From Pseudomonadota bacterium (GTDB lineage Bacteria; Pseudomonadota; Alphaproteobacteria; RF32; CAG-239), in the NCBI GenBank assembly GCA_918234285.1, contig CAKJXZ020000053.1, forward strand, positions 1 to 16,399: a DNA stretch of 16,399 nt, written 5' to 3'. The notes below the pieces were generated by a model, which was not told where the DNA came from, did not search any database, and saw only the letters and a list, made by a program, of their open reading frames with translations. A program made the translations under genes and the position numbers. Positions 1 through 15,940 of the stretch are shown piece after piece (the first letter of the stretch is position 1; the number at the start of each line of letters is the position of its first letter).

Positions 1-198
1 CATACCGAATGCCGCAGCTATATCGTCAGCCGGTTTAGCGGCCTTTGCTTGCGGTGCCGGCTTGGTTTCCATACCGAATGCCGCAGCTATATCATCAGCC
101 GGTTTGGCGGCCTTTGCTTGCGGTGTCGGCTTGGTTTCCATACCGAATGCCGCAGCTATATCGTCAGCCGGTTTGGCGGCCTTTGCTTGCGGTGCCGG
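1..198 (-). repeat. Coding tandem repeat, 69-bp unit, about 2.9 copies visible (23 aa, ETKPAPQAKAAKPADDIAAAFGM)
   Basis: cataccgaatgccgcagctatatc... recurs at 1, 70 and 139 with only a few substitutions. The unit length is a multiple of 3 and in frame with CDS 1..1815. It probably continues beyond the window. Confidence 0.95.
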
Positions 199-1815
199 AG
201 TCGGCTTTTTATTCTGATTATGTGATTCCTGCTTATTTTTTGTATCTTGAGCCGCCGCAAAGAGCGCGTCGATATCAATATCAACAACTTTATCAATCGG
301 TTCTTCCTCAGTTACACCATCATCAACGATAATATCTGAAATATCGATTTCTTTATTTTTGACCTCTTTTTCCTCAAACGGCTTTTCTTTTGCACTCTTG
401 CCACTGTTTACAAGAATATCGGAAATATCGATTTCTTTATTTTCGGCTTTGGTCGGAATGGCTTCTTTTTTACCAACGTTATTTGTTGCCGGCGGATTTT
501 TAGGCTTTGCCGTATTTTCGGCAACAGAAGTCTTTGTCGGCTCGGCTTGCTTGTGATGTTCCGGCTCTTTTATTTGCTGGGTGTGTTGTTTATCTTTGTT
601 TTTCGATTCGTCCTTATCTTTTACGAGCGAATTTGCCGTCGCATCTTTTTTCTCCGGCGCGGTTTCCGCCTTTTTCTCCGGCACAATTTCTTTTTTCTCC
701 GGAGTGGTTTCCGTCTTTTTCTCCGGCATAATTTCTTTCTTCTCCGGAGCAGTTTCCACCTTTGTTTCTACTTTTTTCTCCGGTACCGTTTCCGCTTTAA
801 TCGGTTGTTCGTTTTTATCTTTTTTGATGATATTGGAAGAGATGTTGGAAGCAACCTTCAAGATTTTATCGGCAATGCTTTCGTGAGGTTGCTCGGTCGT
901 ATCTTTGGTTTCATTGTCGAGATATACGTTTGCTTTATTCTGTTTTTCGACTTTAACTTCCGCATCGGCTCTTTTATCGGTAACAACGGCCGTATTCAAA
1001 GTTGGTGCAGAATCAGCAAGCGGTGCTGTCGGAGCGGCCGGAACAATAGGCGCAGCCGGAGCCGTAACCACCGCAGGAGCCTCTTTTTGAATGATGGTAC
1101 GTTCAATAATCTGCGGTTGCATATCTTTTTGTTGGGCCATCAGGGAAGAAATAAATTCCTTCTGCGATTCCATAATCGTTTGCGATAAGGTCTGTCCGAA
1201 GTTTTTCAAAACATCCATTTGTTGCTGCGAATTTTCCTTGAGCAACGTGCTGATTGTATCCGTAATATCGATATTCGGTGCACTTTTATCGGTAGATGAC
1301 CCTTTTTGTTGTGCGGCAATTTGCTGAATATTGGCATTAAGTTTTTGCAGATTTTGCGAATAGGTGCTGAAAGAATCAGTTAACGCCTTGGTAAAGTCGC
1401 TTCCCAACTCTAACGGTGCACTGATAACCGTCGGAACTACTTGCGCTGATGCAACCTGCATCGGGCTCGGAGCAGAATCGCCGGCAGGGGCTTTTTGATT
1501 GATAAGATTACTCAGCGCGGCATCCTTAATACCTTTTTGCGTCTCCAAATCGCTGATGTGTTCCAATAAAATCCGTCCGCCCGGCAACAGAGCTAAAATC
1601 TGGCGAATTTTATTCGGCATATCCAAGAGTTGCTGGTCAAATTCGGCTCGTTTGCCTTCCCGAAAAATATGAATCTGGTGAAATATATTCAGATAACGCT
1701 GAGCCGTCAGCAATAAATCTTCCTGATCTTCTCTATTGCCTCTGAACTCTGCGTTTTCATTCAATTCTGAATTTACGGCAGGCACCGGTTGTTCTTTTTC
1801 TTTGGCTTCTACCAT
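1..1815 (-). CDS. Large low-complexity/repetitive hypothetical protein (partial, at least 605 aa, runs off the left edge)
   Basis: I read this frame by hand and found no stop codon from ATG at 1815 to position 1. A GGGAG Shine-Dalgarno-like site lies just upstream. The N-terminus looks globular (MVEAKEKEQ...LLLTAQRYLNIFHQIHIF...LALLPGGRILLEHI). It is followed by Q-rich helical and A/P/E/K-rich disordered segments with in-frame repeats. It is absent from the ORF track because its stop lies outside the window. Confidence 0.85.
   Translation of the reverse strand, partial: MVEAKEKEQPVPAVNSELNENAEFRGNREDQEDLLLTAQRYLNIFHQIHIFREGKRAEFDQQLLDMPNKIRQILALLPGGRILLEHISDLETQKGIKDAALSNLINQKAPAGDSAPSPMQVASAQVVPTVISAPLELGSDFTKALTDSFSTYSQNLQKLNANIQQIAAQQKGSSTDKSAPNIDITDTISTLLKENSQQQMDVLKNFGQTLSQTIMESQKEFISSLMAQQKDMQPQIIERTIIQKEAPAVVTAPAAPIVPAAPTAPLADSAPTLNTAVVTDKRADAEVKVEKQNKANVYLDNETKDTTEQPHESIADKILKVASNISSNIIKKDKNEQPIKAETVPEKKVETKVETAPEKKEIMPEKKTETTPEKKEIVPEKKAETAPEKKDATANSLVKDKDESKNKDKQHTQQIKEPEHHKQAEPTKTSVAENTAKPKNPPATNNVGKKEAIPTKAENKEIDISDILVNSGKSAKEKPFEEKEVKNKEIDISDIIVDDGVTEEEPIDKVVDIDIDALFAAAQDTKNKQESHNQNKKPTPAPQAKAAKPADDIAAAFGMETKPTPQAKAAKPADDIAAAFGMETKPAPQAKAAKPADDIAAAFGM
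331..443 (-). repeat. Direct repeat of 29 bp x2 (peptide NKEIDISDI)
   Basis: aatatc(t/g)gaaatatcgatttctttatttt occurs at 331-359 and 415-443 with one mismatch. Confidence 0.85.
649..795 (-). repeat. Degenerate coding repeat of PEKK motifs (6 copies)
   Basis: Translation: AETVPEKKVETKVETAPEKKEIMPEKKTETTPEKKEIVPEKKAETAPEKK. The plus strand shows recurring ttctccgg. Confidence 0.85.
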
Positions 1816-1906: not shown

Positions 1907-2881
1907 TTAAAGATTGATAACCGCAACCTTATGAATTTTGGTTAAATCTTCATTGGTGAAATTAATGCGTTCCTCAGGATTCCAACGTAATCCGTACAGT
2001 TGACCGTTTTCATCCTCACGGATACTCAAAAGCTTTGTTTCCGTCTCGCTGATATAATACAGAGCGATATCTCCGGCGCTGACTACTTCAGACGGATCAA
2101 TAAACAACACGGAACGGCTTGAAAGCAGAGAACCTAAGCGGCGTGTGCATAAATTAATGGCATAAATATCCTGCTTACCGCGAAGGCAACTCGGACACGC
2201 AACTTCCTTGAAATTACCTGTACGGCTGACAATGATATTACCTTCGGCATTACCGACACCGTACAGCGGTACCAAAATGTCATCATTACTGTCTACCGAT
2301 GAAACACCGAGATTGGCATAACGTGCATTATTCAACACTTTATAGCGGGTATCGTTATGCTCAATAATATCTTCAAGCTGGCCGTCAGCATCCAGTTTTT
2401 GAATGGTAGACTTTAACTGATCTACCGTCATAGATAAAGCCTTGGCAATATTTTTGTATTCTTTATCCGAAACTTCACGCTGTCCCATCTCAATTCGATG
2501 GTACACCGATAAGGTCATGTCGGCATGCTCCGAAACCTCAATCAGAGTCAAGCCTTTGTTGGTACGAATATGACGCAAGCCGGCGCCGAGAGTTTTCAAA
2601 CCGGCGCTCTGATTGATTTTGCTGCGGCGTTCTTGTTCGCGCTTCCATGCCTGAACAACCTCTTGCTGCGAGTTTTGTTCGTTAACATATAAATCTTGTA
2701 ATGAGCAATCCAAAAGCTCAGCCACTTGAATCAGTTGTTCCTGATTCAATCTGCGATAACCTTTTTCGATTTTGGAAACAGCAGACAGACTGACACCCAG
2801 GTGATCAGCCAATTCCTGCATCGGCATACCATGAATACGACGATGCATTCTTATTTGATTTGGGAAAATAATTTCTTCCAT
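1907..2881 (-). CDS. XRE-family transcriptional regulator with two HTH domains and a C-terminal degenerate S24/LexA-like domain (324 aa)
   Basis: HTH1 is IRMHRRIHGMPMQELADHLGVSLSAVSKIEKGYRRL and HTH2 is LRHIRTNKGLTLIEVSEHADMTLSVYHRIEMGQREV. The C-terminal VPLYG...IYAINL...VLFIDP...AGDIAL...NPE follows the S24 pattern. An AGGGG SD lies upstream of the ATG. Confidence 0.88.
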   Translation of the reverse strand: MEEIIFPNQIRMHRRIHGMPMQELADHLGVSLSAVSKIEKGYRRLNQEQLIQVAELLDCSLQDLYVNEQNSQQEVVQAWKREQERRSKINQSAGLKTLGAGLRHIRTNKGLTLIEVSEHADMTLSVYHRIEMGQREVSDKEYKNIAKALSMTVDQLKSTIQKLDADGQLEDIIEHNDTRYKVLNNARYANLGVSSVDSNDDILVPLYGVGNAEGNIIVSRTGNFKEVACPSCLRGKQDIYAINLCTRRLGSLLSSRSVLFIDPSEVVSAGDIALYYISETETKLLSIREDENGQLYGLRWNPEERINFTNEDLTKIHKVAVINL

Positions 2882-3054: not shown

Positions 3055-5862
3055 TTAACTTTGCGCCGGCGGTTCAATATTAAGACCGGTCGCGGCCATC
3101 ACATCGTTATACGATACACCGGATTGATGCAACATTCCGTTCAGTGCATTGACCTCCGAATTTTCGGTATTCAGTGCTTCTTCAAACTTTTTGGCCCGGG
3201 TAGTACGTTGCATTTGGTCAAGCTGTATTTGCGCCAGGTGACGGTCATAATCTTCCTGCGTAAATCCGGCCATAGCCTGGTCGCGGTCGATGTTGTTACC
3301 CCAACGGCCTTGTGCATCAAGCGGCTGACGTCCTTTGTTTTTCTGATTCGCATATTCCGAAAAACTGCTCTTGCTGTCGTGGTCATACACCGGTTTGCCG
3401 TCAGGCCCGAGCACGACTTTGCCTTTGGCATCGCGTTTTACCGTATATTTGTTGACAGCGGTTTGGACACCGTTACTCTTGTGATGAGTAATATTGCCCT
3501 TGCCGTCAATTGTCTTCATATCGATAACCATTTGTTTGCCGACGATTTTAGCGTTAATTACGCGCTGTTTCATCAATTTTTCACCGGTTTCCGGATCTTT
3601 ACCGTCCTGATTGCTTTGGATAATGGTAAACGAACCGTCTTCATTGATTTTTACGTCGCGACTCGCAAACGTATCCGGTAAATCCAGACCGCGGCTTTCC
3701 ATAACTTCGGAAACCATGTATGTGGCGGCGGCTTCCGGGTTGGTGGCGTCGTTCTTGATTTGGTTAAAGGCTTTGGCATTGAGGGTGCCGTCGGTCTTCA
3801 CCAACTTATCGGCAGCGGCATTTTTGAAATCCGTTTTGGAACTGACAAGATTACCTTTGGTATCATATCGATTGGTCGTGGTTGAAACACCATCGTTAAT
3901 GGTCTGCGTCACACCTTTAGATTTTTTAGCGGTTATTTCCTGTCCTTCCAACGGGTGCAAAACCGAACGAGTGTACGGAGTTTTATACGAAACGATTTCA
4001 CCCTCCGGATTCATGGTAAACGTACGGCTTCCGTCGGCGGTGGAGTAGTGCGTATAGCCTTCCTCGTCTTTGGTAGCCGTCATTTCTTCATAGCCGGTAA
4101 CCACACCCAGAGTGCGTTGGCGCGATTGGAATCTTATATTACCGTTTTCATCACGCATCGGTTCGCCTTTTTCATCTCTCATCACTTCAAATGCTTTATC
4201 CACGGCTGTACGTTCCTTAGCATTCTGCATCGAAGTCCATACCCCGTTGGCATCACGAGTAACCGTGCGCTCGATTTCTTTTCCGAGTAGGCGCATGGTG
4301 CTGCGATAACCGATAACATCACCGGTTGAAGAGTCACGAATTTCTTCGTTTTGTGATAAGCCGGTTTTACTCAATCCTTTCATAGCCAAACCGGTCAGGT
4401 GGTTATAGCCGCTGCGGAAGGAATTTCCGAATTTTGAGTTTAACCCGTTACCTACAGCCTTAGCTCCCTCTGCGGTATAATGTGCGGCCGGTTGCGCAAC
4501 GTAGTTGGAAAATCCTTGCGCCATGGTACCGCCGACCATACGGCCGATACCTTCGCTTCCGCCCAATCCAGGAGAGTCGGCAAAGCGTTTAGCCATACTT
4601 CCGGCCTCGTCCATAAATGACCAGCAGAAGAAACAGATAGCCATCAGCTTGAAGGCACCGATACCCCACCAGGCTAAGCCCTCTATCTTGTTATCAAGCA
4701 TATCCATAAAGCTACCGGTCACAAATATTTCATCGTGGGATTCGATTTCCGCCGGCGAGAGGCTCGATAATCCGAGCCAGGAGGCCAAATTGGAGTTGAT
4801 AACGTAAATTATCAGAGCCATGAATACAAAGTTGAACATGGCATTCATGAAGAAAGTCCAAATTATCTTGACATACTTTTCGGTAATCTTAAAAGCGTAA
4901 GCGGCAATAGCACACGGAATCAACGCGGCGGCGACACACAACTGCAAAATACAATCAATCAAACACCACGGGAACGCCAGCATCAAAATCGAGCCGACTA
5001 CCCATAACACCCAACCGGTTGAAACATATCCTAACCCCGGTAACAGATTTTTGAGGAAGCGGTGTTTGTTGTGTGCCAGGCATATTGAATATTTGCCAAG
5101 ACCAACCATAATACCGGTGGCATCTTCCAAATTTTTGATACTGCAGACGATTGATTCGCCGATTTCCACCGGCAGACCGCCGTCAGCTCCGATTGCATAA
5201 TTGCCTTTATATCCTTTAATATTTTGCATATAATCACTTGATTTATCACAAGTGGAAGTCGAATTCAGTGTGTTGACGAAGTTAAATCCTGTTTTCATAA
5301 CCGGATTCAGCGTCAGATTCATAACTTGGAAGATGGCTCCGTTCAAAATCATCACTACCACCGACACACGGAAGGCTTGGAACAAAAAGCCTTTCAACAT
5401 CTCTCCGGTGGAAGTGGCGCTCGTCGTACCGATTTGTTTGGCAAAATAAAACAGCATCCAGATTAAAAATCCGATAATCACCAAATTCTTACTAGGTACC
5501 GCCAATTGGTTATTTGCGGTCAAAGCCAACGAACTGGCAACATTGAACATAATTTTGAATAAATTGCAGAAAACACAACTCTTTGAATCCAGGAACTCAC
5601 CTAAAGCGCAGTCTTTGGAATCACCTTCTTTGATTTGGGCCGGAGTTACTTCGGTGTTGGCTGAGCCGCCGGCTCCCCCGCCGTGAGCTACTTCCGGACT
5701 ACCGCAATAACCGGACGAACCGCAAGGACTATCCGTAGGACAACTTCCGCAGACTCCGCCCCATTCGGAACCGCCTGCGTATGCCGAAGACAGAGGAGCA
5801 AACGCACCCAGCAATAACATCAATAAAAACATATATAACTGCAATTTTCTCATATTCGTCAT
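3055..5862 (-). CDS. virB6: VirB6/TrbL-like type IV secretion membrane protein, unit 5 (935 aa), with long hydrophilic C-terminal extension
   Basis: Signal peptide (...SSAYA), Cys/Gly-rich head, CVFC motif and multiple TM segments. It carries the VirB6-like signature LIDCILQLCVAAALIPCAIAAYAFKITEKY...W..FMNAMFNF, then a Gly-rich linker and a ~480-aa soluble tail. An alternative start is at 5853. Confidence 0.72.
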   Translation of the reverse strand: MTNMRKLQLYMFLLMLLLGAFAPLSSAYAGGSEWGGVCGSCPTDSPCGSSGYCGSPEVAHGGGAGGSANTEVTPAQIKEGDSKDCALGEFLDSKSCVFCNLFKIMFNVASSLALTANNQLAVPSKNLVIIGFLIWMLFYFAKQIGTTSATSTGEMLKGFLFQAFRVSVVVMILNGAIFQVMNLTLNPVMKTGFNFVNTLNSTSTCDKSSDYMQNIKGYKGNYAIGADGGLPVEIGESIVCSIKNLEDATGIMVGLGKYSICLAHNKHRFLKNLLPGLGYVSTGWVLWVVGSILMLAFPWCLIDCILQLCVAAALIPCAIAAYAFKITEKYVKIIWTFFMNAMFNFVFMALIIYVINSNLASWLGLSSLSPAEIESHDEIFVTGSFMDMLDNKIEGLAWWGIGAFKLMAICFFCWSFMDEAGSMAKRFADSPGLGGSEGIGRMVGGTMAQGFSNYVAQPAAHYTAEGAKAVGNGLNSKFGNSFRSGYNHLTGLAMKGLSKTGLSQNEEIRDSSTGDVIGYRSTMRLLGKEIERTVTRDANGVWTSMQNAKERTAVDKAFEVMRDEKGEPMRDENGNIRFQSRQRTLGVVTGYEEMTATKDEEGYTHYSTADGSRTFTMNPEGEIVSYKTPYTRSVLHPLEGQEITAKKSKGVTQTINDGVSTTTNRYDTKGNLVSSKTDFKNAAADKLVKTDGTLNAKAFNQIKNDATNPEAAATYMVSEVMESRGLDLPDTFASRDVKINEDGSFTIIQSNQDGKDPETGEKLMKQRVINAKIVGKQMVIDMKTIDGKGNITHHKSNGVQTAVNKYTVKRDAKGKVVLGPDGKPVYDHDSKSSFSEYANQKNKGRQPLDAQGRWGNNIDRDQAMAGFTQEDYDRHLAQIQLDQMQRTTRAKKFEEALNTENSEVNALNGMLHQSGVSYNDVMAATGLNIEPPAQS

Positions 5863-5882
5863 CCTGTTTTCCGTTATCCGTC

Positions 5883-7781
5883 TCAGACCTCCAACTCACG
5901 ATATTCGTCCTGCTCTTCGGCCTTTAATCTCTCGGCTTCTTCATCTGCAGATACGACATCATTCCATTTCTGCATCCAGGAACGATTATCCGTTTTTCTG
6001 TTGCTGTTATCGCCAACCCAGTTGCCGAAATCTTTCAATACTCCGCCGAGTTTATCAGCCGATTTACCCATATCCTTGCCGGTGCGGGCCACGATTTGGC
6101 CGGTTTTCTTGGCAATAAAGCGGGTTCGTTGACCTTTGTTATCTTCCATAGCCTGAATGGCATCTCTGGTTGATTGCGGCATATTTGCCATCTGGCGTAC
6201 CGTTTTAATCGGATGAGCCATTTTCTTGAACGGTGTTGCCAACACATCTGTAGGGTTGAGGGTAATAGGGGCTTGATCTGCCTCTTTAAGGCCTTCCTTA
6301 AACCCTTGCGCAAATTCTTTGGCGCCTTTTCCGACCTTAGTATTTGAAACCTTTTCTTTTGCTGCTTTGGCAGTAGAAGAAACAGTTTCTGCCGCAGCTT
6401 CGATTTTCTCTCCGGTCTTTACCTTGGTCTCGTGCAAATCGGCGCGAACTTCTTCCGTAGACTTGTCCGAAACCGAAGCAATAGTTGCTGCAACCGCCTG
6501 CTTTCCGGCTTCTTTGGCAGCTCCTCCGCCGTGTGCAACCACATTCTCGGTTGCCTGTCCCACCGTCGGCGTGACTTTGTCGATATTACGCTGAAGCTTA
6601 TCGCCGACCTTTTTGGTGAAACGGTCAACTTTTTGATTAAATCCGTTGCCGGAACGCTTGCCGTTTTCCAATTTCCCGTCCAAAAAGTTCTGACGCTCGT
6701 CTTCGGTATATGGTAAAGGTGCGGCGGCAGTAACAAAATCGGCGGCTGTTTTTACCCCTTCACCGGCAGCCTGAACGGCATCGTTTGCCTTTTGTCCGAG
6801 GTTTTGAATGGCCTCATTGGCTCTTCTGCCGGCATTATGCATGGCATTATTGTAATATTGGCGCGGATTGGACATTACCCGTCTTACGCCTCTCCAACCG
6901 TCGGCAATTTTTTCTCTGCCTTCAGCCGAAATCAACGAGCCCATACCGCTGATGGCCTGTCCGGCCTGGTGAGTAACCACGTCTTTGGCAAAGTCTACAG
7001 CAGGCTTGGCTACATTTTGCGCCACCATACCGAAAGCCTGTGTACCCATTTGGTTTATCGGGCTTGAACTGCCGAACATGGCATCGCTGAAAAATGCGTT
7101 AAGATAGTCGTTTACACTGGATTCCAATATTCTGAAACCAAAGACCAGACTAAAGCCGACCACCAAAATATGGGAACTGAAGAACGAGAAATTCTCACTG
7201 ATTATTTCTGTTTGTTCTTGATCAATAGCATACCAAAAGGCCTGATCCCCGCCTTCAAACAATCCGGCATCGATTAAACAGACGGCAAATGCCACACCGA
7301 CTGACATAAGCATAAACAACATGGAATTACGGATAATCGTACCAAGGTTATCGATAAACTTGTTACTGGTCGGCGGGAACGGCCATAAAGCGATGCTTAT
7401 CGGCATAAAGATAATGGCAACACCAAGTCTGAGAGAGGCGTCCACAAAATACATGCCGACGCTTAAGGACATAAATATTCCCACCACATAAATAGCCAAT
7501 CCGACAAACAACAAGCCGATGTTCGGAACGTCAATCAAACCGAAAACGGAGGTTTTATCTACATCAATGGCATAACACATCAAGGCGTGCCCCACCATCA
7601 GAACATTGCCCATGGTTTTGTACGTAGCGGTCATCAACAAATGCATTCCCTGCAAGATTCCGTTATCAAACAAGCCCGCGCTGTCGGCGGCAACCTGAGC
7701 CTGCGCCGGCACGGCAAAGAGCACTTGAGCAATAATCAATGCCCAAACAAGGAAGATGATATTTTTCAGTCCGTTTCTCAT
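5883..7781 (-). CDS. virB6: VirB6/TrbL-like protein, C-terminal half of split unit 4 (~632 aa), with its own signal peptide and an A/K-rich helical tail
   Basis: An AAGGA SD lies 6 nt before ATG 7781; alternative starts are 7784, or 7796 with an ATGA overlap. The signal peptide is MRNGLKNIIFLVWALIIAQVLFAVPAQA. The signature is VGHALMC...FVDASLRLGVAIIFMPISIALWPFPPT. The track's extension to 8021 overlaps the upstream gene and is probably not translated. Confidence 0.72.
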   Translation of the reverse strand: MRNGLKNIIFLVWALIIAQVLFAVPAQAQVAADSAGLFDNGILQGMHLLMTATYKTMGNVLMVGHALMCYAIDVDKTSVFGLIDVPNIGLLFVGLAIYVVGIFMSLSVGMYFVDASLRLGVAIIFMPISIALWPFPPTSNKFIDNLGTIIRNSMLFMLMSVGVAFAVCLIDAGLFEGGDQAFWYAIDQEQTEIISENFSFFSSHILVVGFSLVFGFRILESSVNDYLNAFFSDAMFGSSSPINQMGTQAFGMVAQNVAKPAVDFAKDVVTHQAGQAISGMGSLISAEGREKIADGWRGVRRVMSNPRQYYNNAMHNAGRRANEAIQNLGQKANDAVQAAGEGVKTAADFVTAAAPLPYTEDERQNFLDGKLENGKRSGNGFNQKVDRFTKKVGDKLQRNIDKVTPTVGQATENVVAHGGGAAKEAGKQAVAATIASVSDKSTEEVRADLHETKVKTGEKIEAAAETVSSTAKAAKEKVSNTKVGKGAKEFAQGFKEGLKEADQAPITLNPTDVLATPFKKMAHPIKTVRQMANMPQSTRDAIQAMEDNKGQRTRFIAKKTGQIVARTGKDMGKSADKLGGVLKDFGNWVGDNSNRKTDNRSWMQKWNDVVSADEEAERLKAEEQDEYRELEV

Positions 7782-7792
7782 CATATTTCCTT

Positions 7793-8794
7793 TCATCGCA
7801 GAGCCTGCCCGGCCAATCCGGCAAACAAATCCAGACCGTATTTCAATCCTAAATCCAATACCGGATTTATGAAATAGTAGGCAATCAGCGGACCGGCTCT
7901 TTCCACAAACAAATAGGCCAATGATACCTTGAATCCCATCTTGATAATATCTTGCAGCAATTTTCCGATGGTTGTAGGCGTAAATGAAGCCAATTGTTGC
8001 AGCAAATAATATGCCAACCATATCATAAATCCGATTTCCAAAATCAACTTACCCAGCGATATAGCACTAGGCAAAGCTTTGCCGGCCGCCTGGAAAAACG
8101 AATTCATCAACACTACTACCACGTTGCAATACCAACAAAGTTTGGCATCATTGGTATCGTCCATATATATTTTTTTCATAGATTCAAACTTACAACCGCC
8201 GGCCGCTTTGGAGCCGTCACTGTTATCCGAATAATGCTGATTATGCGGCTGTTCCGGGGCATCTTTTTCTTGAACTTCTTCTTCCTTATCGGATGGCAGA
8301 GTAGGGTCATGCGACAACGCGGCATGTTCTTTGTTGTAGAAATACATACCGGAATTGACATCCTTAAACGCGCCGTTTGGACCGCCGCTGCGGCTGAACT
8401 CGTTAATATCGCCGTGTCCCAGTGAAGACAACGTACCGCTAACCGTTTGTTTTGCCAATCGGAGTGCCGTATTCCATCCGGCGGAATTCTGCCAACGCCG
8501 TTCGATGTTTTCTACACTGCCCAAATCGCCGGAAGGAGAGAAGGCACCGGAATTATAGATAATATCGGTGTAGGTAATATCTTTGTTGCCGTAGGCAGAT
8601 TGTTGTTCCTTGAGGCGATTGCGGAGAACGTTTGCCATATAGGTCATGGAAACTTCGTTACCGTTACGCGTTTCATTCATTAAAACGGCAGCAATCTGAT
8701 ATTCAACCAAACTCTTGCCGGCCCAAGCCGAACGCGGTAAAATACACAGTATCGCGACAAACAAGAACACAAATGCAAAAATACCTTTTCTCAT
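7793..8794 (-). CDS. Fusion protein (333 aa): signal peptide + SleB/Hydrolase_2-like cell-wall lytic transglycosylase domain + N-terminal (CxxC/TM) half of a VirB6-like unit
   Basis: IAAVLMNETRNGNEVSMTYMANVLRNR...TYTDIIYNSGAFS...GMYFY matches the SleB pattern LA..i..EArGE...g..aVa.VilNR...ti..Vvy...QFS...H.FY. The C-part, CWYC...ILEIGFMIWLAYYLLQ...GKLLQDIIKMGFKV...FINPVLDLGL, aligns by eye with the N-halves of the neighbouring paralogs. It has an ATGA overlap with the upstream gene and a GGAG SD. Confidence 0.75.
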   Translation of the reverse strand: MRKGIFAFVFLFVAILCILPRSAWAGKSLVEYQIAAVLMNETRNGNEVSMTYMANVLRNRLKEQQSAYGNKDITYTDIIYNSGAFSPSGDLGSVENIERRWQNSAGWNTALRLAKQTVSGTLSSLGHGDINEFSRSGGPNGAFKDVNSGMYFYNKEHAALSHDPTLPSDKEEEVQEKDAPEQPHNQHYSDNSDGSKAAGGCKFESMKKIYMDDTNDAKLCWYCNVVVVLMNSFFQAAGKALPSAISLGKLILEIGFMIWLAYYLLQQLASFTPTTIGKLLQDIIKMGFKVSLAYLFVERAGPLIAYYFINPVLDLGLKYGLDLFAGLAGQALR

Positions 8795-10248
8795 TGCCGT
8801 TCTCCCCTTTGCTGATTCTGATTTTTGTCGCGACCTGCCGCACGTTGCATGGCCTGTTTTGCTTTATTCATAGCCTCTTTTGCTTTCTGTACTTTATCTC
8901 TGAGAGCTCTCAATCTCGCGCTATAATTAATGGCTACCGTTGCTACCTTACCGGCACCTGCCGTAAGCGCTTCAAACGAAATTTGCGCAATTGTACCGAT
9001 GAGAGCGGCAACTTTTTGCTGGAACTTGGTATCTCCGCCGCCTCCCGAAACGCTTTCGGACATGGTAACAGCCATACCGGTTGCCTTAATGATGATAAAT
9101 CCCATCATAATCAGCGACAGAGGAATTGTGCCGAAACTCTGATATTCTTCAAGATCGCCGTATCGGTTGCCGTTTGCGGTCAACAATTCATTTACGGCAA
9201 ACACGGTCATCGAAACTAAAATGGCCAGGCACAGCATAATAGCTGCAGAGTTCAGAATAATCTTAAATCCGACATTGGTCCATTTACGGGTTTGTTCAAA
9301 GGCGTAGAACAAAATCAGGAACGGCATTATAACAATCATCATAACCATACGGAAAATCGCGTCTACGAGATAAAGCACGAAACCCCATTTGGCAATCAAA
9401 AAGGCTGCCATCAAGAATATACCGACGATGAACGGGAAAACGCCGTTGCCGAATACACCGCGCAGGGCCACGGTATAACCGGCATTCAGTTGGTCACTCA
9501 CCGCGCAGGCCATACAGCTCATCATATCAAGCGGTTCCTTCGGGAACGAAGAATCACTCATCTGCATAACCGTACCGGCCGGAACAGAGCATCCGCCGTC
9601 GGATATGGTGAAGTTGACCGGTTCCGTTTCACCGTCAATAACAACATCGCGAAGCGAGCCCGATTTTTGCGACATCAGCGACAATATCGCCGCGGCAAAT
9701 TCAAGTAATGTCATATAAATCGGAAACACAAAGGTATTGATGACATAGATGATATTGGTTGGAGAAGATGCCAGATAACCGCAAGCGAAGCATATTGCCG
9801 CCTTTCGTAGCACCTTGGTCCAGAATTCGCCGATAGATTCCGGTGAAGTAGCCGAAACATGCCGCAAAACCTGAAACGCTAACCACAAGGAAAATGCCAG
9901 CACCATCAACGACAATAAATCTTCGGTCGTTACTTTGGCATAAACATTGAGAGCCATATTGCTGAGGCCGTTGTAGAAGACTTTGAGGAGGGAAGCCTGA
10001 ATGCATTGTTTGCGTCCAGATACACAACGATTGTCTTCGTCAGGTTGCTCGTTTTGCATCACGCTTTTGCCATCGCCGACGGAAGGACATTCAAAACGTT
10101 GGCTGGCCGCGGTTTGCGGTTCACTTGCACCTCGCGACTGCTTGGCATTTTCTTCGTCACCGCACGCGGAAAGAAGGACAACCGTGCATAAAATAAGGCA
10201 CAGCACCTTTAAGATTTTCCAAATATTTATGTCCTTTATCCTAATCAT
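8791..10248 (-). CDS. virB6: VirB6/TrbL-like protein, unit 3 (~485 aa), predicted lipoprotein
   Basis: The likely start is ATG 10248 (alternative TTG 10299). It has a lipobox, VVLLSA-C (Cys29), and multiple TM segments. The signature is YLVDAIFRMVMMIVIMPFLILFYAFEQTRKW. The tail is short, basic and helical. Confidence 0.72.
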   Translation of the reverse strand: MIRIKDINIWKILKVLCLILCTVVLLSACGDEENAKQSRGASEPQTAASQRFECPSVGDGKSVMQNEQPDEDNRCVSGRKQCIQASLLKVFYNGLSNMALNVYAKVTTEDLLSLMVLAFSLWLAFQVLRHVSATSPESIGEFWTKVLRKAAICFACGYLASSPTNIIYVINTFVFPIYMTLLEFAAAILSLMSQKSGSLRDVVIDGETEPVNFTISDGGCSVPAGTVMQMSDSSFPKEPLDMMSCMACAVSDQLNAGYTVALRGVFGNGVFPFIVGIFLMAAFLIAKWGFVLYLVDAIFRMVMMIVIMPFLILFYAFEQTRKWTNVGFKIILNSAAIMLCLAILVSMTVFAVNELLTANGNRYGDLEEYQSFGTIPLSLIMMGFIIIKATGMAVTMSESVSGGGGDTKFQQKVAALIGTIAQISFEALTAGAGKVATVAINYSARLRALRDKVQKAKEAMNKAKQAMQRAAGRDKNQNQQRGERQ

Positions 10249-10323
10249 TGCAGTTCCACCCGTTGTATTTATTCTATCATAGTTCAGTATCTCTTTCAAT
10301 ATGGTTATAAGCCATCGTCATCC

Positions 10324-13053
10324 TCATTTTTTCGTCGGTTTATCCGGTTGCGGCTGAGGAATTTCAACTTTTGATTCCTGCGGCTGCGGTTGCGCCGGCT
10401 GTTCCGGTTGTTGCGGCGCCGGTTGTTGATCCGTCGGCTGCTGCGTCGGCTGTTCCGGTTGTTGCGGCGCCGGTTGTTGATCCGTTGGCTGTTGCTGTGC
10501 CGGCTGCGGCTGTTGCTGAGTTGTCGGCCTTGTGGCAGAACCGCTGTCTCCCGCCGGTTCCGGTTGCGTTTGATTGTCTGTTGCGTCCCTAGGCTGTCCT
10601 TCCTTTTGTCCGCTCGGAACATTATTGTTTTCTTGTGCGGAAGGTTTATCCGTAGGTTCTGATCTGTTTTGTTCCGCCGCTTCTCCGGCTTCGCCTTGGA
10701 CTTCCCCTGTCTCGACAGGATTTGGAGTAGTGCTTACCCGAGTGCGTTGCGGACCTTCTCCCGGCTCATTATTCTGCTGTGTTTCAGCTTCTGCCCGAGT
10801 TCCGTTCGGCGTTTTAGGCTGTTGTTGCGGTTTCTGAGCACCTTTATCATTTTGCTGTTGATCTGCAGGTTCGGCTGTTTCCTTTTCTGCCGGTTCGCCT
10901 GAGCTTTCTCCGGCCGTTTCGTCAGCCGGTGCTGCTTCATCATTGGCCAATGGAGTTACCGGTTCTCCCGAACCGCTGGTTCTTGATCCTTTGCCTTTCG
11001 GAGCGGCTTCTTCGCCGGAGCGCGGTGTACCGCCTTCATTGGTCGGTTTGCCCTCGCCGGAAGAAGGTGTGCCCTCCGTTTTAGGGGTCTCCTCACCGGT
11101 CGATGTATTCTCCAACGGTGTCTCGGTATCCGGTGTTTCAGGCGCCGTATCTCCACCAGGAGGAGGTGTCCCATCGCCACCCTGCTGCGGTGTTCCGCCT
11201 CCAGAAGGCGGCATATCTCCACCGGCTTGCGACGGAAGTCCGGAACCTGTTTGTTGATTTTGGAATCTTCCCAACCCCACTTTCTGGCCGAGAGTCTGCA
11301 GTCCGTTGTGTTTCATATCCGAAATTTTATCGGTTAATTCGTTAAATCCGGCCTTAATACCGGTATTCTCCAATGCGGCATTACCGGCATAACTGCCGAG
11401 TCTACCCATAGAATGTAATCCGCCTTTACCGACAGTAGTTGCCACACCGACGGCCGCAGTGCCCATTTTCGCACCGATATCGGAACCGGCACCTTGCGAG
11501 AATTGTTGTGCAAGTGAACTTACCTTAGCAATCAACTTTAAGGCAAAAATGCAGCAGGCGAGCAACATCAAAACTCTTATGCCGTCAAGCGATGCCAATT
11601 TTTTGAGGGTATCGGCTTCATTGTTGTTCACGGCGTGGAGTATTTCCTGCATACTCGAGCTGCCGTCGCCGGATACGGCAAACGCTATAATGGCAGTGCC
11701 GACCAATAAAACCGTGCCCATCAAAGCAAAGTTAAAGAATGTGTTCATCAGCATTTTAACACCTTTGACGGTGTATTGCTTAGTCAAGTCAAAAGGCCAA
11801 CAAGCTACCAACAACGGTACTAATGCACTGAGCATACCGATTTGTACCGTGCAGTCAATCAAATAAAACGACAGCGCCAACCAAATCATCAAGCCGAAAG
11901 CCAACATAATCAAACCGCTGAGGAACATGTGTAAATCAGGCAACAAATCACCGCCCCAGGTGCCGCTCGGTGCCGAGTGGCAAATCAATCCCATCCCCAC
12001 TGCCGGCAAAGTAGCGGCGGTGGCGCCAAAACATCTGACGGTACTCAGAACCTGATTAAACAGAGATTCATCCAATTCGGAAGAGGCAATTACTCCGTAT
12101 CCGCCCGGATTGGTATCGCACTGTATGTTACCGCTGGCAGATGCTATCGCCAGCCCCATATCCAATCCGCCACGAATAACCGGTGAAATAAACAAGGTAT
12201 AAATATATTGCGAGTTACTCAATAAGGTAACGGTGATAGCTATTTTCAGACCGATGAGTAGAACCGATTTCAAATATGTGCCGAGTTTAATACCGCCGGT
12301 TGAACCGACAGCTTTGAGAGACTCTATGGCTAACAATACCAAGAAAAAGATAATCACAACTTCGCTGAGCGGCTCTGCCGTGCTTTGCCAAGCAACGTGT
12401 GCAACACGAGCGCTGGCACTCAATGCCGCTTCAAACACTCCACACAACGGACAAGCAGCCAAACGTTGCTGGATACCGGTAAATGATTCGCATTTTCCGC
12501 CCTGTCCCTGCGCCAGGCCGGTATCTTTATCGAGAGTTTCACAAACAGGGTTTTCTCCGTTTTCGTCGCAAACGCAGGCGGTGGCAGAAGGATTTTTAAG
12601 TGCCTGAATACTTTTACGCATATTGTTATATGCCTCAATGGCCGGAGAGTAGGCGGCTTTAACCTCTTGCAACAGTTGAACGCAGGCCGTAGTATCGCCG
12701 CGAACATTACCCCACGGAATGCTGATATATTCGTATAAACTGTCATCTTCAATGTTTACACCTGCAGCTTTGGCGGCAACAGCATCATCAACCGAAATAC
12801 GTACTTTCGGTCCCGGATTTCCGCTTTCATCCAAACAATTGCCCATATAGGTCTGAGCCAGCGAGTTATATGGTCCTACCGCAGACTTAAATTGATTAAA
12901 TGAGGTTTTTAAATTATCCGTAAGTTCTTCTTTAACATTTGCCTGCACTTCCGGTTTACAAGTGTTTCCTTCTTCGGCAAATGCCGGCCCGGCTGCCGGT
13001 AAAATTACCGTCAGCAACAAAACCAAGAGAATTGTATACCACTTATTTTTCAT
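10324..13053 (-). CDS. virB6: VirB6/TrbL-like protein, unit 2 (~909 aa), with large N-terminal exported domain and P/Q/E/G/T-rich disordered tail
   Basis: The likely start is ATG 13053 (GAGG upstream; 11-bp overlap with the small gene). It has a signal peptide (...GPAFA) and a CPLC motif. The signature is YLIDCTVQIGMLSALVPLLVACWPFDLTKQY...MNTFFNF. The low-complexity tail is about 290 aa. Confidence 0.72.
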   Translation of the reverse strand: MKNKWYTILLVLLLTVILPAAGPAFAEEGNTCKPEVQANVKEELTDNLKTSFNQFKSAVGPYNSLAQTYMGNCLDESGNPGPKVRISVDDAVAAKAAGVNIEDDSLYEYISIPWGNVRGDTTACVQLLQEVKAAYSPAIEAYNNMRKSIQALKNPSATACVCDENGENPVCETLDKDTGLAQGQGGKCESFTGIQQRLAACPLCGVFEAALSASARVAHVAWQSTAEPLSEVVIIFFLVLLAIESLKAVGSTGGIKLGTYLKSVLLIGLKIAITVTLLSNSQYIYTLFISPVIRGGLDMGLAIASASGNIQCDTNPGGYGVIASSELDESLFNQVLSTVRCFGATAATLPAVGMGLICHSAPSGTWGGDLLPDLHMFLSGLIMLAFGLMIWLALSFYLIDCTVQIGMLSALVPLLVACWPFDLTKQYTVKGVKMLMNTFFNFALMGTVLLVGTAIIAFAVSGDGSSSMQEILHAVNNNEADTLKKLASLDGIRVLMLLACCIFALKLIAKVSSLAQQFSQGAGSDIGAKMGTAAVGVATTVGKGGLHSMGRLGSYAGNAALENTGIKAGFNELTDKISDMKHNGLQTLGQKVGLGRFQNQQTGSGLPSQAGGDMPPSGGGTPQQGGDGTPPPGGDTAPETPDTETPLENTSTGEETPKTEGTPSSGEGKPTNEGGTPRSGEEAAPKGKGSRTSGSGEPVTPLANDEAAPADETAGESSGEPAEKETAEPADQQQNDKGAQKPQQQPKTPNGTRAEAETQQNNEPGEGPQRTRVSTTPNPVETGEVQGEAGEAAEQNRSEPTDKPSAQENNNVPSGQKEGQPRDATDNQTQPEPAGDSGSATRPTTQQQPQPAQQQPTDQQPAPQQPEQPTQQPTDQQPAPQQPEQPAQPQPQESKVEIPQPQPDKPTKK
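10396..10495 (-). repeat. Coding tandem repeat, 51-bp unit x2 (QQPTDQQPAPQQPEQP)
   Basis: cggctgttccggttgttgcggcgccggttgttgatccgt recurs at 10396 and 10447. Confidence 0.9.
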
Positions 13054-13270
13054 CGGTTTCATCCTCTTTTGTTGCCGGAATTTCCGCTTGTTCCGAGTTA
13101 ATATTTTTATTGCCGAACCCCACAAAATAGGCAGCTGCGGCCAAAACTATAACCAACACCGCAAAAGCGGTAACATGAAAGGCTTGTGAACCCAATACGG
13201 AAAGGGCTCCGCACTTGAACAGCATGAAGATTGAAATCAGGATAATTAATGATAAAATAGTGGATTTCAT
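13043..13270 (-). CDS. Small membrane protein (75 aa, two hydrophobic segments, acidic tail)
   Basis: It has an ATGA overlap with the upstream stop and a GGAG SD. Its stop overlaps the next gene's start, so it fills the gap exactly. There are two hydrophobic stretches. Confidence 0.75.
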   Translation of the reverse strand: MKSTILSLIILISIFMLFKCGALSVLGSQAFHVTAFAVLVIVLAAAAYFVGFGNKNINSEQAEIPATKEDETDEK

Positions 13271-14874
13271 TTATTTTCTCCTTCTGTTTTATCCTGATTA
13301 AACCCATTGGTAATTTCGTCACTTTGCTGCTTGGAAGATTTATCATCGGTATCCATTCCCAAGGCTGCCTTAGTTTTGTTAACCGCATTGTCTTTGAAGT
13401 TTTTCGTTGCGGTCTTGACTTTGCCCGCACCGGCTTTGGCCGCACCGGTAACTCCGAGATCGTCACTCGCCGATTTAAGTTGCGAACCGACACCTTTAAC
13501 CGCATTTTTAGCCAAACCGGCCGCACCGCCGAGATTACCAGGCTTTCCGCCTTCACCGCTCAAAGCATCGCCGACCGCGGCCTTAGTTACCAACGAGGCA
13601 GCGGTACCGCCGAGATTGCCACCCAAACCGCCGAGTTGCGCTCCGGCTGCGAACTTGCTGGCCAAACGATTGGCTTCTCCCGGTAATTTGAAACACATAA
13701 AGCAACACACGATAACCATCAGCATCTGTAACCCGCCGATTTGGATGGTGTCTTCCAAACTGGTAACGCTGTCGCTGTTAATCAAATTTATCAGCTCTTC
13801 CTGAGATATCCCTACGGAAAGAGCCTGTCCGGAAATACCGACAATCGTGGCAACGATAATTCCCATCATTACAAAATTAAAGAAAACGTTTAAGAACATA
13901 TTCCAACCGATTTTGGTGTAACCGGAAGTCATTTTGAACGGCCAACATGCCACAAAAAACGCCATCAGCGCACACACTATTCCCAATTCTATGACGCAGT
14001 CAAGCATATAAAATCCGATAGCCAGCCAAATACCTACACCGGAAATATATAGTAGCGCACCCTCGGTCAGCATACCGATACGCGGAATAACTTTCATACG
14101 GAAAAACCATTCCAAATCTTTCCACGAATTACAAATAAAACCGCGCCCGATGGCCGGCATTGTGGTTGCACCGTTGCTGAAATTCTCTACGGCACCAACC
14201 ATAATTTGCGCGGTTCTTGCCGAAAAATATTCATTGGATGGATCAAAGGCACTCGCGTATTTTGCCCCGGTTTCCGCCGCTTTTTGCGAAGTTGTACCGG
14301 TAAGCGCCATGCCGAAATCCACACTGCTTTCCAAAATCGGACTGAGTAGTTTATTGTATAAAAATGTCGGATGCTGTAAAATTAAAATGGTGATAGCTAC
14401 CTTGAACCCCTGAAGCAGTAAATCAGTCAGGTATTTACCAAGTTTTTGTGCTTCTGGAGAGGCAACGGACATTAGAGTCAGATATCCTACATAAATCAGA
14501 AAAGCAATAGTCAGCAGTTCAATCAGGGCATCACTGGTTGCTTCAAACGAGCTCTTAGAAATTGTCTGCACCGCTCCCATTAGATTGGCAAATAAGCTGC
14601 ATGTAAAGCATTTATCTAAGAATTGCCGTTCGTAATCAGTAACGGTCTCGCATTCGTCGTCCGAATCTTTACCGGGCTCTGTCTGTGTGTTTTGTGGGGT
14701 TGATTGGTCACAGATGACTGTATTGTTATCATCGCATAAGCAACCTGCCTGTGCATTCGGGAGTGCAAACGGACAATTATGCAGTGTGCTAGCGGCAAAA
14801 GCAGGAGCCGTCCATAACACCGCAACGGTTAGGAATAATAAAAATAAATAACGGACGCAGCTCCTCAGTTCCAT
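13267..14874 (-). CDS. virB6: VirB6/TrbL-like protein, unit 1 (~535 aa)
   Basis: The likely start is ATG 14874 (TAAGGA SD), rather than 14934. It has a signal peptide (...APAFA), a Cys-rich head and a CFTC motif. The signature is YMLDCVIELGIVCALMAFFVACWPFKMTSGY...W.MFLNVFFNF. The G/A-rich tail is typical of TrbL. Confidence 0.72.
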   Translation of the reverse strand: MELRSCVRYLFLLFLTVAVLWTAPAFAASTLHNCPFALPNAQAGCLCDDNNTVICDQSTPQNTQTEPGKDSDDECETVTDYERQFLDKCFTCSLFANLMGAVQTISKSSFEATSDALIELLTIAFLIYVGYLTLMSVASPEAQKLGKYLTDLLLQGFKVAITILILQHPTFLYNKLLSPILESSVDFGMALTGTTSQKAAETGAKYASAFDPSNEYFSARTAQIMVGAVENFSNGATTMPAIGRGFICNSWKDLEWFFRMKVIPRIGMLTEGALLYISGVGIWLAIGFYMLDCVIELGIVCALMAFFVACWPFKMTSGYTKIGWNMFLNVFFNFVMMGIIVATIVGISGQALSVGISQEELINLINSDSVTSLEDTIQIGGLQMLMVIVCCFMCFKLPGEANRLASKFAAGAQLGGLGGNLGGTAASLVTKAAVGDALSGEGGKPGNLGGAAGLAKNAVKGVGSQLKSASDDLGVTGAAKAGAGKVKTATKNFKDNAVNKTKAALGMDTDDKSSKQQSDEITNGFNQDKTEGENK

Positions 14875-14908
14875 GGCAAAATCCTTAGTTCTTATACTTC
14901 TATGAATA

Positions 14909-14966
14909 CAGTATAACATAAAATTTTTCAACATTTTATGACAAATTTGTTAAATTTTCGTAACAA
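14909..14966 (-). promoter_or_regulatory. Putative operon promoter region (extended -10-like TGtTATACT; inverted repeat TTGTTA-N8-TAACAA)
   Basis: This is the AT-rich 130-bp gap before the first operon gene. TGtTATACT lies on the minus strand near 14911-14919 and the dyad at 14947-14966. Confidence 0.35.
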
Positions 14967-15004: not shown

Positions 15005-15940
15005 CTAAACCGGCATGGCTTCGGTGTTGTTTTCAATTACCACGGTTGCGCCGCGAGTATTATCTTCATCATCATCATCTTCTTCATCGTCAGATAATTT
15101 GCCGAATTCACCGCTCACAATATAATTGCGGGCATATTGCGCCACGGCATCACTGCTCAGCGGAAAATAAGTGTCTTTACGGATTTTTTTTATGTTGTCG
15201 GAATAGGACTCTTCGCTCGGAGGAGTGGAAAACGGAAAGCTATCGAATCGAGAGAGCAACTTTTTAACTCTATCGTGAACAGTCAGCGGAGCAAACAAAA
15301 TGCCGTGTTCAATGTCGTGAGGCAAACGCGCCAAAGCAACCGCTCGCGGAGTTGAAATATCACGCAACATCGGGCCTAAAATGAAATTGAAAAAATCTCT
15401 TGTGGTAAGTAACTCAGCCAAATCACTGCCGGAGTTAAGCGGGTTAATATCAAGGATTCGCGCAATATTGTACTGACGATAATTATTGCTTTTACTCAGT
15501 AATTTTCGTGTAATCAGACAACTGCAACCGACGTTTATGATATACAGTCGACCGCGGATTTCAATGTTTTTCAAAAATTGCGACAGCATGGTTGCGTGAT
15601 AATAAATATTGCGACGCAGCGAAGGATATCCCAAACAAACAACGTTCATCGGTAATTCTTTGAGCGAATCAGCCAATTTTTTTACGGATTTTTTGGAACG
15701 ACCGAATCCGTGTAAGATTAAAACAGTGTCATCATAAAGCGGACTTAATTCGTAGGCCTCTATATATTTTAAAAGTATATCTTTACATTGCGCAAAAGTT
15801 CCGGAGTGCCGCCGAATATTATGCGGATCAAGCAGGCGACATTTATTGTTGATGATATTACGCTGTATCACCCAATCTTGATAATTATATAAATCTTCCC
15901 AAAAGAATCGACCACCAAATGTGAAAAAATCGAATTTCAT
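15005..15940 (-). CDS. Alpha/beta-hydrolase-fold protein (esterase/lipase-like), apparently catalytically degenerate (311 aa)
   Basis: VLILHGFGRS oxyanion motif, LGYPS, and an NPLNSGSDLA loop (PP..GS.LA type). The N-terminal extension is TFGGRFFWED...W.IQRN...CRLLDP. The nucleophile elbow reads INVGCSC. There is a strong GGAGG SD and an acidic C-tail. Confidence 0.8.
   Translation of the reverse strand: MKFDFFTFGGRFFWEDLYNYQDWVIQRNIINNKCRLLDPHNIRRHSGTFAQCKDILLKYIEAYELSPLYDDTVLILHGFGRSKKSVKKLADSLKELPMNVVCLGYPSLRRNIYYHATMLSQFLKNIEIRGRLYIINVGCSCLITRKLLSKSNNYRQYNIARILDINPLNSGSDLAELLTTRDFFNFILGPMLRDISTPRAVALARLPHDIEHGILFAPLTVHDRVKKLLSRFDSFPFSTPPSEESYSDNIKKIRKDTYFPLSSDAVAQYARNYIVSGEFGKLSDDEEDDDDEDNTRGATVVIENNTEAMPV

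Follow-up and report, generated by a model that had tools for sequence, protein, structure and literature searches.

Can a core protein of a type IV secretion system (T4SS) be divided into two separately exported chains, and where would the cut fall? The question is raised by a contig of a Pseudomonadota bacterium (GTDB lineage Bacteria; Pseudomonadota; Alphaproteobacteria; RF32; CAG-239; GenBank assembly GCA_918234285.1, contig CAKJXZ020000053.1), which was analysed over its whole length of 16,399 nucleotides and is called the window hereafter. All genes of interest lie on its minus strand, where five tandem VirB6-like units extend from 3055 to 14934; four of them are intact paralogs (P1, P2, P3 and P5), and the fourth unit consists of two genes, A and B (Table 1). 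To our knowledge, VirB6 is the least understood core part of T4SSs, and its classical view is that of a polytopic inner-membrane channel. An earlier interpretation made from the letters without database searches (the sequence-only reading) had proposed that the fourth unit is a selected two-chain VirB6 in which a new signal peptide restores the topology. We consider it quite probable that this gene underwent an ancient fission in a short periplasmic linker following two N-proximal membrane helices, and that the resulting chains reassemble.

Organization of the two genes and their junction

Alignment of six proteins from the window shows that the paralogs are 19–29% identical to P1 and have a common architecture. 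It begins with a signal peptide and a variable N-domain located in the periplasm; a C...CxxC motif then precedes two hydrophobic helices, an ...SP(I/V)...G block and a loop, and behind a ...G..(I/M)C block come three long hydrophobic helices, which bear an (A/C)WPF motif, and a K/R-rich tail. Gene A ends within this plan and gene B takes it up again, as the sequence-only reading had noticed: residues about 210–333 of A align with the CxxC, the two transmembrane segments (TM1, TM2) and the SP(I/V)...G module of P1, P2 and P5, the stop being located 13 residues past the conserved ...NPVLDLGLKYG block (C-terminus ...YYFINPVLDLGLKYGLDLFAGLAGQALR-TGA, also read as ...FINPVLDLGLKYGLDLFAGLAGQALR-TGA), and B aligns with the remainder of the intact paralogs from ...VGHALMC onward. 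The VirB6 N-terminal module of A (residues 196–333, the A module hereafter) holds the invariant C201, the C220xxC223 pair, two long hydrophobic helices, the ...P311...G320 block and the 13-residue tail. The range originally given for the split gene, 5883–8140, covers B; it takes in only the VirB6-like C-terminal third of A, which runs to 8794, and the N-terminal SleB-like hydrolase domain of A was not mentioned. For the C-terminal extension of B, profile searches gave only weak helical-repeat and apolipoprotein-like matches.

The Shine-Dalgarno sequence and the Sec-type signal peptide that had been described between the two halves are both found. AAGGA (7792–7788) lies 3 and 6 nt upstream of two ATGs at 7784 and 7781, themselves 12 and 15 nt downstream of the ATG that overlaps the stop of A. 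In a contig of sequencing run X6 this overlapping ATG is replaced by TTG and the last codon of A is changed from Arg to His with the stop kept (window 7796–7797), so that the real start of B may be the ATG at 7784 or 7781, behind AAGGA. Signal peptides were scored by a crude rule of our own (basic n-region, hydrophobic h-region, small residues at positions -3 and -1). By this rule the N-terminus of B (MKGNMMRNGLKNIIFLVWALIIAQVLFAVPAQA followed by QVAADSAGLFDNGIL) contains 3 basic residues, a 17-residue hydrophobic core and an AxA site (AQA then Q) after residue 33. The same rule finds 42 of the 46 homologs of B to be signal-peptide-like, the other 4 beginning inside the protein or inside the signal peptide, and likewise 31 of the 38 top homologs of A. 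The predicted cleavage site takes forms such as AQA, AHA, AAA, AWA, AFA and ALA among the homologs of B.

The split is old, conserved and selected

The junction is bridged by contigs assembled from runs of three other studies. A 10,061-nt contig of run X3 covers 5883–8794 with 5 substitutions and 0 gaps, pieces from runs X4 and X7 and the more divergent contig of X6 also cross the junction, and no insertion or deletion is listed in any of the 4 runs. The A module is present in 47 of the 50 genomes of the same genus that were searched, and in all 47 it sits in a short frame (175–464 aa), i.e. the gene is split in each of them. A HMMER search with the A module against 1.84 billion representative proteins gave 314 matches, of which the best 38 are all 86–403 aa long and carry the module 0–31 residues from the C-terminus; the first long protein, of the paralog type, appears at rank 39 (E 7e-16). 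Conversely, the module was found in none of the 46 homologs of B.

Among split loci, 21 were examined closely. In all of them A and B are adjacent, a separate second gene with a signal-peptide-like N-terminus is present, and the likely start of B lies no more than about 25 nt from the stop of A; the two genes overlap by ATGA in 8. This proximity and the ATGA overlaps suggest that translation of A and B is coupled. The stop codon of A is TGA in 10 of these loci, TAA in 9 and TAG in 2, and the frame of B relative to A is 2 in 13, 1 in 7 and 0 in a single one. The occurrence of three stop codons and three relative frames excludes read-through, codon reassignment and a conserved frameshift.

Selection on the two halves, which the sequence-only reading had expected, was estimated by the NG86 method as omega (dN/dS) against two relatives of the same genus, G001 and G054, at dS 0.6–1.1. 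Omega is 0.102 for gene A in both comparisons and 0.083 and 0.080 for gene B (G001 and G054, respectively; 0.10 and 0.08 when rounded). Within A it amounts to 0.048 and 0.065 for the VirB6 module and to 0.137 and 0.127 for the hydrolase part; within B, to 0.030 and 0.055 for the core and to 0.131 and 0.093 for the tail. The intact paralogs give 0.05–0.13, a range that includes both A and B. Both genes are under purifying selection, and the split is old, conserved and selected, not an artefact or a pseudogene.

Position of the cut in the VirB6 fold

The break had been assigned to a large exported loop. This loop is indeed large in the paralogs, but it comprises only about 20 residues in orthologous intact proteins. 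Measured from G320 of A (...DYG) to G41 of B (...GLF), the corresponding distance is 17–38 residues in 9 of 11 intact orthologs, which leaves no counterpart for the signal peptide of B, as had been stated for the intact copies. The two other intact orthologs, from other genera (L033:3655–6720 and L035:3835–6849, both on the minus strand), have linkers of 307 and 334 residues. The 307-residue linker holds a Peptidase_M23 domain (E 1.4e-13) and the 334-residue insert is without a Pfam match, which agrees with the natural domain boundary proposed earlier; judged from these sequences, the linker at the cut tolerates inserted domains, peptidoglycan hydrolases among them. The 13-residue tail of A and the first 7 residues of mature B add up to 20, within the ancestral linker length, so that the signal peptide of B appears to be a pure addition whose predicted removal would restore ends of ancestral length. 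MAFFT aligns this signal peptide with those at the N-termini of the intact orthologs, and an origin by duplication and complementary deletions, with the signal peptide stemming from the N-terminus of a duplicated copy, was considered; since short hydrophobic segments align by composition, we make no such claim.

The overall fold was examined on the intact ortholog of another genus, G137 (537 aa), for which an AlphaFold2 model built from a 42-row alignment has a predicted local distance difference test (pLDDT) score of about 90 in the core. The model contains long helices at 56–104 and 111–166 (49 and 56 residues), an unstructured segment at 167–183, and helices at 184–216, 235–278, 286–320 and 348–375. 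With Foldseek the three best rows of the PDB are TrwI/VirB6 chains (probability 1.00, TMt 0.52–0.59, E 0.003–0.05). VIA-align gives Z 15.6 with 8rt9_F (root-mean-square deviation 5.1, 272 of 272 residues aligned), 15.4 with 7o3v_F and 15.1 with the third chain, every residue of the solved chains being aligned; Legionella DotA follows with Z 12.4, unrelated designed helical repeats with 10.4 and 9.9, and the remaining rows with at most 7.3. By its model, then, the intact ortholog has the VirB6 fold. According to the available parts of the descriptions of the R388 cryo-EM structure (Mace et al. 2022, PMC9259494; a 2025 review, PMC12857230), TrwI has seven long helices, of which alpha1 and alpha2 alone are in the inner membrane and the rest form a periplasmic pentameric stalk. 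From the order of helices in the model we infer that the cut falls between alpha2 and alpha3 of TrwI, i.e. between membrane-anchor and stalk-forming helices.

Four cysteines are invariant across split and intact orthologs, three in A (C201 in 27 of 27 rows, C220 in 27 of 28, C223 in 27 of 27) and one in B (C74 in 26 of 26 filled rows), and the three are exactly the cysteines of mature A. If the four form two disulfides, one of these must link the chains. The arrangement is suggestive of an inter-chain disulfide between A and B. A complex prediction for A 196–333 with B 35–300 from alignments of our own scored 0.16 against a mark of 0.32 and is evidence neither way.

Direction and age of the fission

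An order-level search found a match to the core of B in 119 of 121 genomes. From the best matches, 20 loci representing 17 other genera of the family were chosen, at most two for any genus, with an additional locus omitted solely to keep to 20 regions, and the gene following the P3-type lipoprotein paralog was inspected. It is split in 7 of these loci (6 genera) and single in 13 (11 genera), and the positional ortholog in the only genome from a second family is likewise a single gene, of 489 aa. A further outgroup, G027 from another family of the class, was left out as its array ends at the contig edge. Single chains are the rule in all four paralogs, in the ortholog of the second family and in the VirB6 proteins of solved structure, from which it follows that the two-gene form is derived, i.e. 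it arose by fission and not by fusion. A continuous gene in close relatives would have refuted the split according to the sequence-only reading; such a gene occurs in more distant genera and in all paralogs, where it gives the ancestral state.

In the tree of P3, which has 24 rows and omits loci without a complete P3, 10 of the 11 split rows form one clade (Shimodaira–Hasegawa-like approximate likelihood ratio test, SH-aLRT, 96), the position of the eleventh being unresolved, and a tree that keeps all split rows together is not rejected (approximately unbiased, AU, test, p 0.353). One ancient fission is the simplest reading, allowed though unproven. Repeated fission at the same site, if true, would strengthen the case for a natural boundary.

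A SleB-like hydrolase domain that changes chains

The N-terminal part of A (residues about 26–158) gives a match to Pfam Hydrolase_2 (PF07486) below the cut-off (E 0.01, 16.9 bits; cut-off 27). In the AlphaFold2 model of A, pLDDT exceeds 90 over much of this domain, and catalytic domains of SleB occupy the top three PDB rows (4fet_A, 4fet_B and 4f55; probability 0.98–1.00, TMt 0.61–0.62, E 0.03–0.15), all other rows having a probability of at most 0.16. BLASTP of the domain against the N-terminus of P0043, a homolog of gene B with a precomputed PF07486 assignment, gives E 4e-12. Glutamate E41 (window numbering), which we take to be the catalytic glutamate of the SleB-like domain, is present in every hydrolase-bearing row of the alignment of A orthologs. 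On these matches the domain is a putative SleB-like cell-wall hydrolase.

The location of the domain differs between species of the genus. In the window and its nearer relatives it is on A. In G020, G019, G004, G012 and G011 it sits behind the signal peptide of B, their A being only about 175–290 aa long; the homologous domain on gene B of G004 matches PF07486 with 52.2 bits (E 1e-13). In G017 it is on neither chain, and no hydrolase domain was found in Pfam searches of the split forms of other genera. In the tree of the B core, the species with the hydrolase on B branch first and those with the hydrolase on A are an inner clade (SH-aLRT 95), a branching order from which the domain probably moved from the N-terminus of B to that of A.

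How the two chains may form one subunit

We infer the following course for export, translation and assembly. A would be exported by its own signal peptide, with its hydrolase and cysteine motif in the periplasm, and its helices 1 and 2 would form a hairpin returning the chain to the periplasm. B would be translated from the same message, from a start at the stop of A or a few bases past it, and its own Sec signal peptide would return the new N-terminus to the periplasm; after the predicted cleavage, the free ends of 13 and 7 residues would equal the ancestral linker length. The three hydrophobic helices of B might then insert in the classical topology with the K/R-rich tail in the cytoplasm, in line with the positive-inside rule, or they might end in the stalk, as in R388. 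The chains would re-associate through their long helices to give one VirB6-like subunit of the single T4SS of the genome, and the hydrolase would stay fixed where assembly takes place.

Several observations weigh against this two-chain reading, which is drawn from sequences and predicted structures. The fold match comes from the intact G137, only 24–27% identical to A and B, not from A and B themselves, and the cut between helices 2 and 3 was placed by helix order in the model, not by residue-level superposition. B matches Pfam TrbL only below threshold (E 0.071, 13.3 bits; cut-off 25.9), Pfam TrbL was not detected in A, and searching the sequences of solved structures with a B-ortholog profile returned no VirB6. 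In further searches, a profile of A orthologs and gene B of G004 gave no match to the latter sequences, NCBIfam has no match for A or B, and precomputed PF04610 assignments exist for 4 of the 46 homologs of B. The cleavage call for the signal peptide of B is a prediction by the crude rule, and its 34 codons give omega values of 1.86 and 0.08 in the two comparisons, the former at dS 0.024 with too few sites to interpret. Finally, the tree of the B core (34 rows) requires at least 3 changes of state, with two long-branched split genera placed among intact ones; its well-supported branches force just one change, and a single clade is not rejected (AU test, p 0.211).

A more far-reaching version is possible, and clearly less probable than reassembly as such. 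In this version the fission divides VirB6 into a two-helix anchor (A) and a stalk body (B); the latter, Sec-exported and cleaved, would lie wholly outside the membrane and be held by A, possibly through an inter-chain disulfide, and the new periplasmic N-termini would then have taken up wall-hydrolase domains. If the separation of anchor and stalk is true, the lineage provides a natural experiment for the dispute over the topology of VirB6 and the path of its assembly.

The halves could also be functionally independent, A being a membrane-tethered wall hydrolase or an anchor and B a VirB6-like subunit that lacks an anchor and associates with the other four paralogs but not with A. The movement of the hydrolase domain between A and B within the genus, and its loss from both in one species, speak for modular halves, four intact paralogs are available as partners, and in the available part of the R388 description helices 1 and 2 alone are in the membrane, the rest forming the stalk (PMC9259494). 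We regard this as rather unlikely in view of the adjacency of A and B in 21 of 21 split loci with the close start of B and the ATGA in 8. Moreover, the A module is conserved as strongly as the core of B (omega 0.05–0.065), the four cysteines invariant in intact orthologs remain so across the split, and model helices 1 and 2 exceed a membrane span, so that some of their length is expected to pack against the remainder of the protein. Similarly improbable, by a shade more so, is that B retains its hydrophobic N-terminus as an uncleaved signal anchor, an additional membrane helix, the topology being restored in this case as well: a core of 17 residues is rather long for a signal peptide that is cleaved, but 42 of 46 homologs of B show a small-x-small site behind the core by the crude rule, and apart from this the segment shows the low sequence conservation that is common among signal peptides.

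An ancestral two-gene form, with fusion as the source of the single genes in other genera, would be compatible with the three or more changes of state in the B-core tree; it is very unlikely given the single chains of all four window paralogs, of the positional ortholog in the outgroup family and of the solved TrwI and DotA, and given that the split forms make one clade in the P3 tree, one unresolved row apart. A single chain produced by programmed frameshifting or stop-codon read-through might be suspected from the 4-nt overlap of the frames of A and B in the window and from the relative G002, in which A and B are in the same frame with one TAA between them, yet it has hardly any chance, because frames 0, 1 and 2 and all three stop codons occur among split loci, the frame of A meets 3 more stops within 9 codons past its own, and in such a chain a signal peptide would end up buried halfway along a periplasmic linker. 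An error introduced during sequencing or assembly, or a pseudogene of recent origin, conceivable for a draft genome of 71 contigs, is practically eliminated by the independent assemblies without insertion or deletion, by the split in 47 of 47 genomes of the genus having the gene and in 6 further genera, and by omega of about 0.1 in both halves.

The VirB6 array and its surroundings

Reassembly of A and B thus remains the reading that we prefer, and it has to be seen in the setting of the array (Table 1). P3 is the sole paralog above the threshold of Pfam PF04610 (TrbL/VirB6; E 3.1e-8, 34.1 bits), and in a profile search of the genome it is the only TrbL match, with none outside the window. The search for T4SS genes took in VirB4, VirB2, VirB10, VirD4 and TrbL and located VirB4, two VirB2, VirB10 and VirD4, all on other contigs. 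The array, including A and B, is presumably the VirB6 component of the single T4SS of this genome. A secretin gene (Pfam Secretin, E 2.9e-15; G000:C17:15904–17541, minus strand) lies a few kb from the virB2-virB2-virB4 cluster, with several signal-peptide proteins without family nearby.

Table 1. Features of the VirB6-like array in the window (positions on the forward strand of the contig)
Feature	Position	Strand	Evidence
P1, intact paralog, 555 aa	13267..14934	-	ORF (open reading frame), alignment
P2, intact paralog, 933 aa counted from first TTG, true start probably later	10324..13125	-	ORF, alignment
P3, intact paralog, 502 aa, lipoprotein-like N-terminus	8791..10299	-	ORF, Pfam PF04610
Gene A, 333 aa: predicted signal peptide, putative SleB-like hydrolase domain, linker, VirB6 N-terminal module	7793..8794	-	ORF, paralog alignment, orthologs
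Gene A, predicted signal peptide, residues 1-25, ...SAWA then GK	8720..8794	-	authors' rule-based scan
Gene A, putative SleB-like hydrolase domain, about residues 26-158	8321..8719	-	Pfam, model, BLASTP
Gene A, VirB6 N-module, residues 196-333	7796..8209	-	alignments
Junction: TGA of A 7795-7793, ATG 7796-7794 overlapping it (ATGA), then AAGGA 7792-7788	7788..7796	-	read directly
Gene B, 637 aa from overlapping ATG; 633 or 632 aa from ATGs at 7784 or 7781	5883..7796	-	ORF
Gene B, predicted signal peptide, residues 1-33, ...VPAQA then QV	7698..7796	-	authors' rule-based scan
Gene B, VirB6 core, residues 34-300: GLFDNGIL helix, invariant C74, three long hydrophobic helices, invariant ALWPF	6897..7697	-	alignments
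Gene B, hydrophilic K/R-rich helical C-terminal extension, residues 301-637	5886..6896	-	ORF, alignment
P5, intact paralog, 935 aa	3055..5862	-	ORF, alignment

Further features were noted along the array. The tail of P2 (10324–11400, minus strand) is a long Pro/Gln/Glu/Thr-rich stretch of low complexity with PQQPEQP-type repeats and forms the G+C maximum of the window (0.55). P5 of the relative G004 (L019:2304–5552, minus strand) has an N-terminal M23-like domain just below the cut-off (E 1e-5, 26 bits); a ...NHYG(T/S)D(I/L)G motif is seen by eye in P5 of most other relatives and is lacking in P5 of the window and of G001. Directly upstream of the array (15005–15940, minus strand) lies a gene of 311 aa without Pfam or NCBIfam match, with the motif MKFDFFTFGGRF(F/V)WED..., whose homologs (about 290–311 aa) always precede a VirB6 array, the outgroup family included. 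Downstream, in all loci seen, is an XRE regulator with two HTH_3 domains (1907–2881, minus strand; omega about 0.02), which gives a sub-threshold match to the family model of Wolbachia Wmk. Beyond it, a large acidic and lysine-rich repeat protein (1–1815, minus strand) has C-terminal repeats (...KPTPQAKAAKPADDIAAAFGME...) that run off the contig end.

The number of units is five in this array and five in Rickettsia, the solved VirB6 stalks are pentameric, and the outgroup G025 has only four units. A hetero-pentamer with one subunit of each VirB6 type is conceivable.

Significance and comparison with known systems

A cut after helix 2 together with an export signal of its own would mark a natural module boundary in VirB6, and on this reading the lineage demonstrates that anchor and body need not be covalently joined. 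Two separately taggable chains allow tests of where the VirB6 body sits and how it gets there, and a linker that appears to accept peptidoglycan hydrolase domains is useful for engineering and annotation. The genes are at present labelled 'hypothetical proteins', and the halves could pass for pseudogene fragments. What is new here is the conserved two-gene form of a known single-chain VirB6 family, and with it a module boundary in a protein of debated topology. The literature on split VirB6, supplements aside, yielded no conserved two-gene VirB6 with a second signal peptide; the only case found is virB6d, recorded as split in one Rickettsia bellii strain, with no second signal peptide mentioned in the available part of that report (PMC2653234).

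By the model of the intact ortholog, the closest structural relative is TrwI/VirB6 of plasmid R388 (PDB 7o3v, 8rt9, 8rtd), with which it has the seven-long-helix fold in common; the sequence similarity between TrwI and the locus is undetectable by profile search. In both, two N-proximal helices, predicted as such here, serve as the anchor and hydrophobic helices follow, the later ones of R388 forming the periplasmic pentameric stalk in the accessible descriptions (PMC9259494, PMC12857230). Unlike TrwI, the protein of this locus is made of two chains with the inferred cut after helix 2, the first with its own signal peptide and a putative wall-hydrolase domain, the second with its own signal peptide and a hydrophilic tail of 337 residues.

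The fused hydrolase can be compared with the SleB/CwlJ lytic enzymes (Pfam Hydrolase_2; PDB 4fet, 4f55), whose SleB fold is the top match for the N-domain of A. Wall hydrolases are common in T4SSs according to the available part of a review of the subject (PMC12857230). Those of the VirB1 type are free, whereas here the putative hydrolase is fused to a VirB6 fragment, the window copy being below the Pfam threshold.

The closest genomic analogue is the tandem array of five extended VirB6 paralogs in Rickettsia. Going by the available part of the account of the Rickettsiales rvh system (RvhB6a–e; PMC2653234), both have five tandem VirB6 genes of 500–1150 aa with long hydrophilic extensions, and both belong to alphaproteobacteria with a small genome and scattered T4SS genes, a likeness noted from the tandem array alone. 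The array of the window differs from rvh in not being adjacent to virB3/virB4. In contrast to virB6d of the single R. bellii strain, as far as that account describes it, the split in the present lineage of uncultured Alphaproteobacteria is kept across at least 7 genera and is accompanied by a predicted signal peptide on the second chain.

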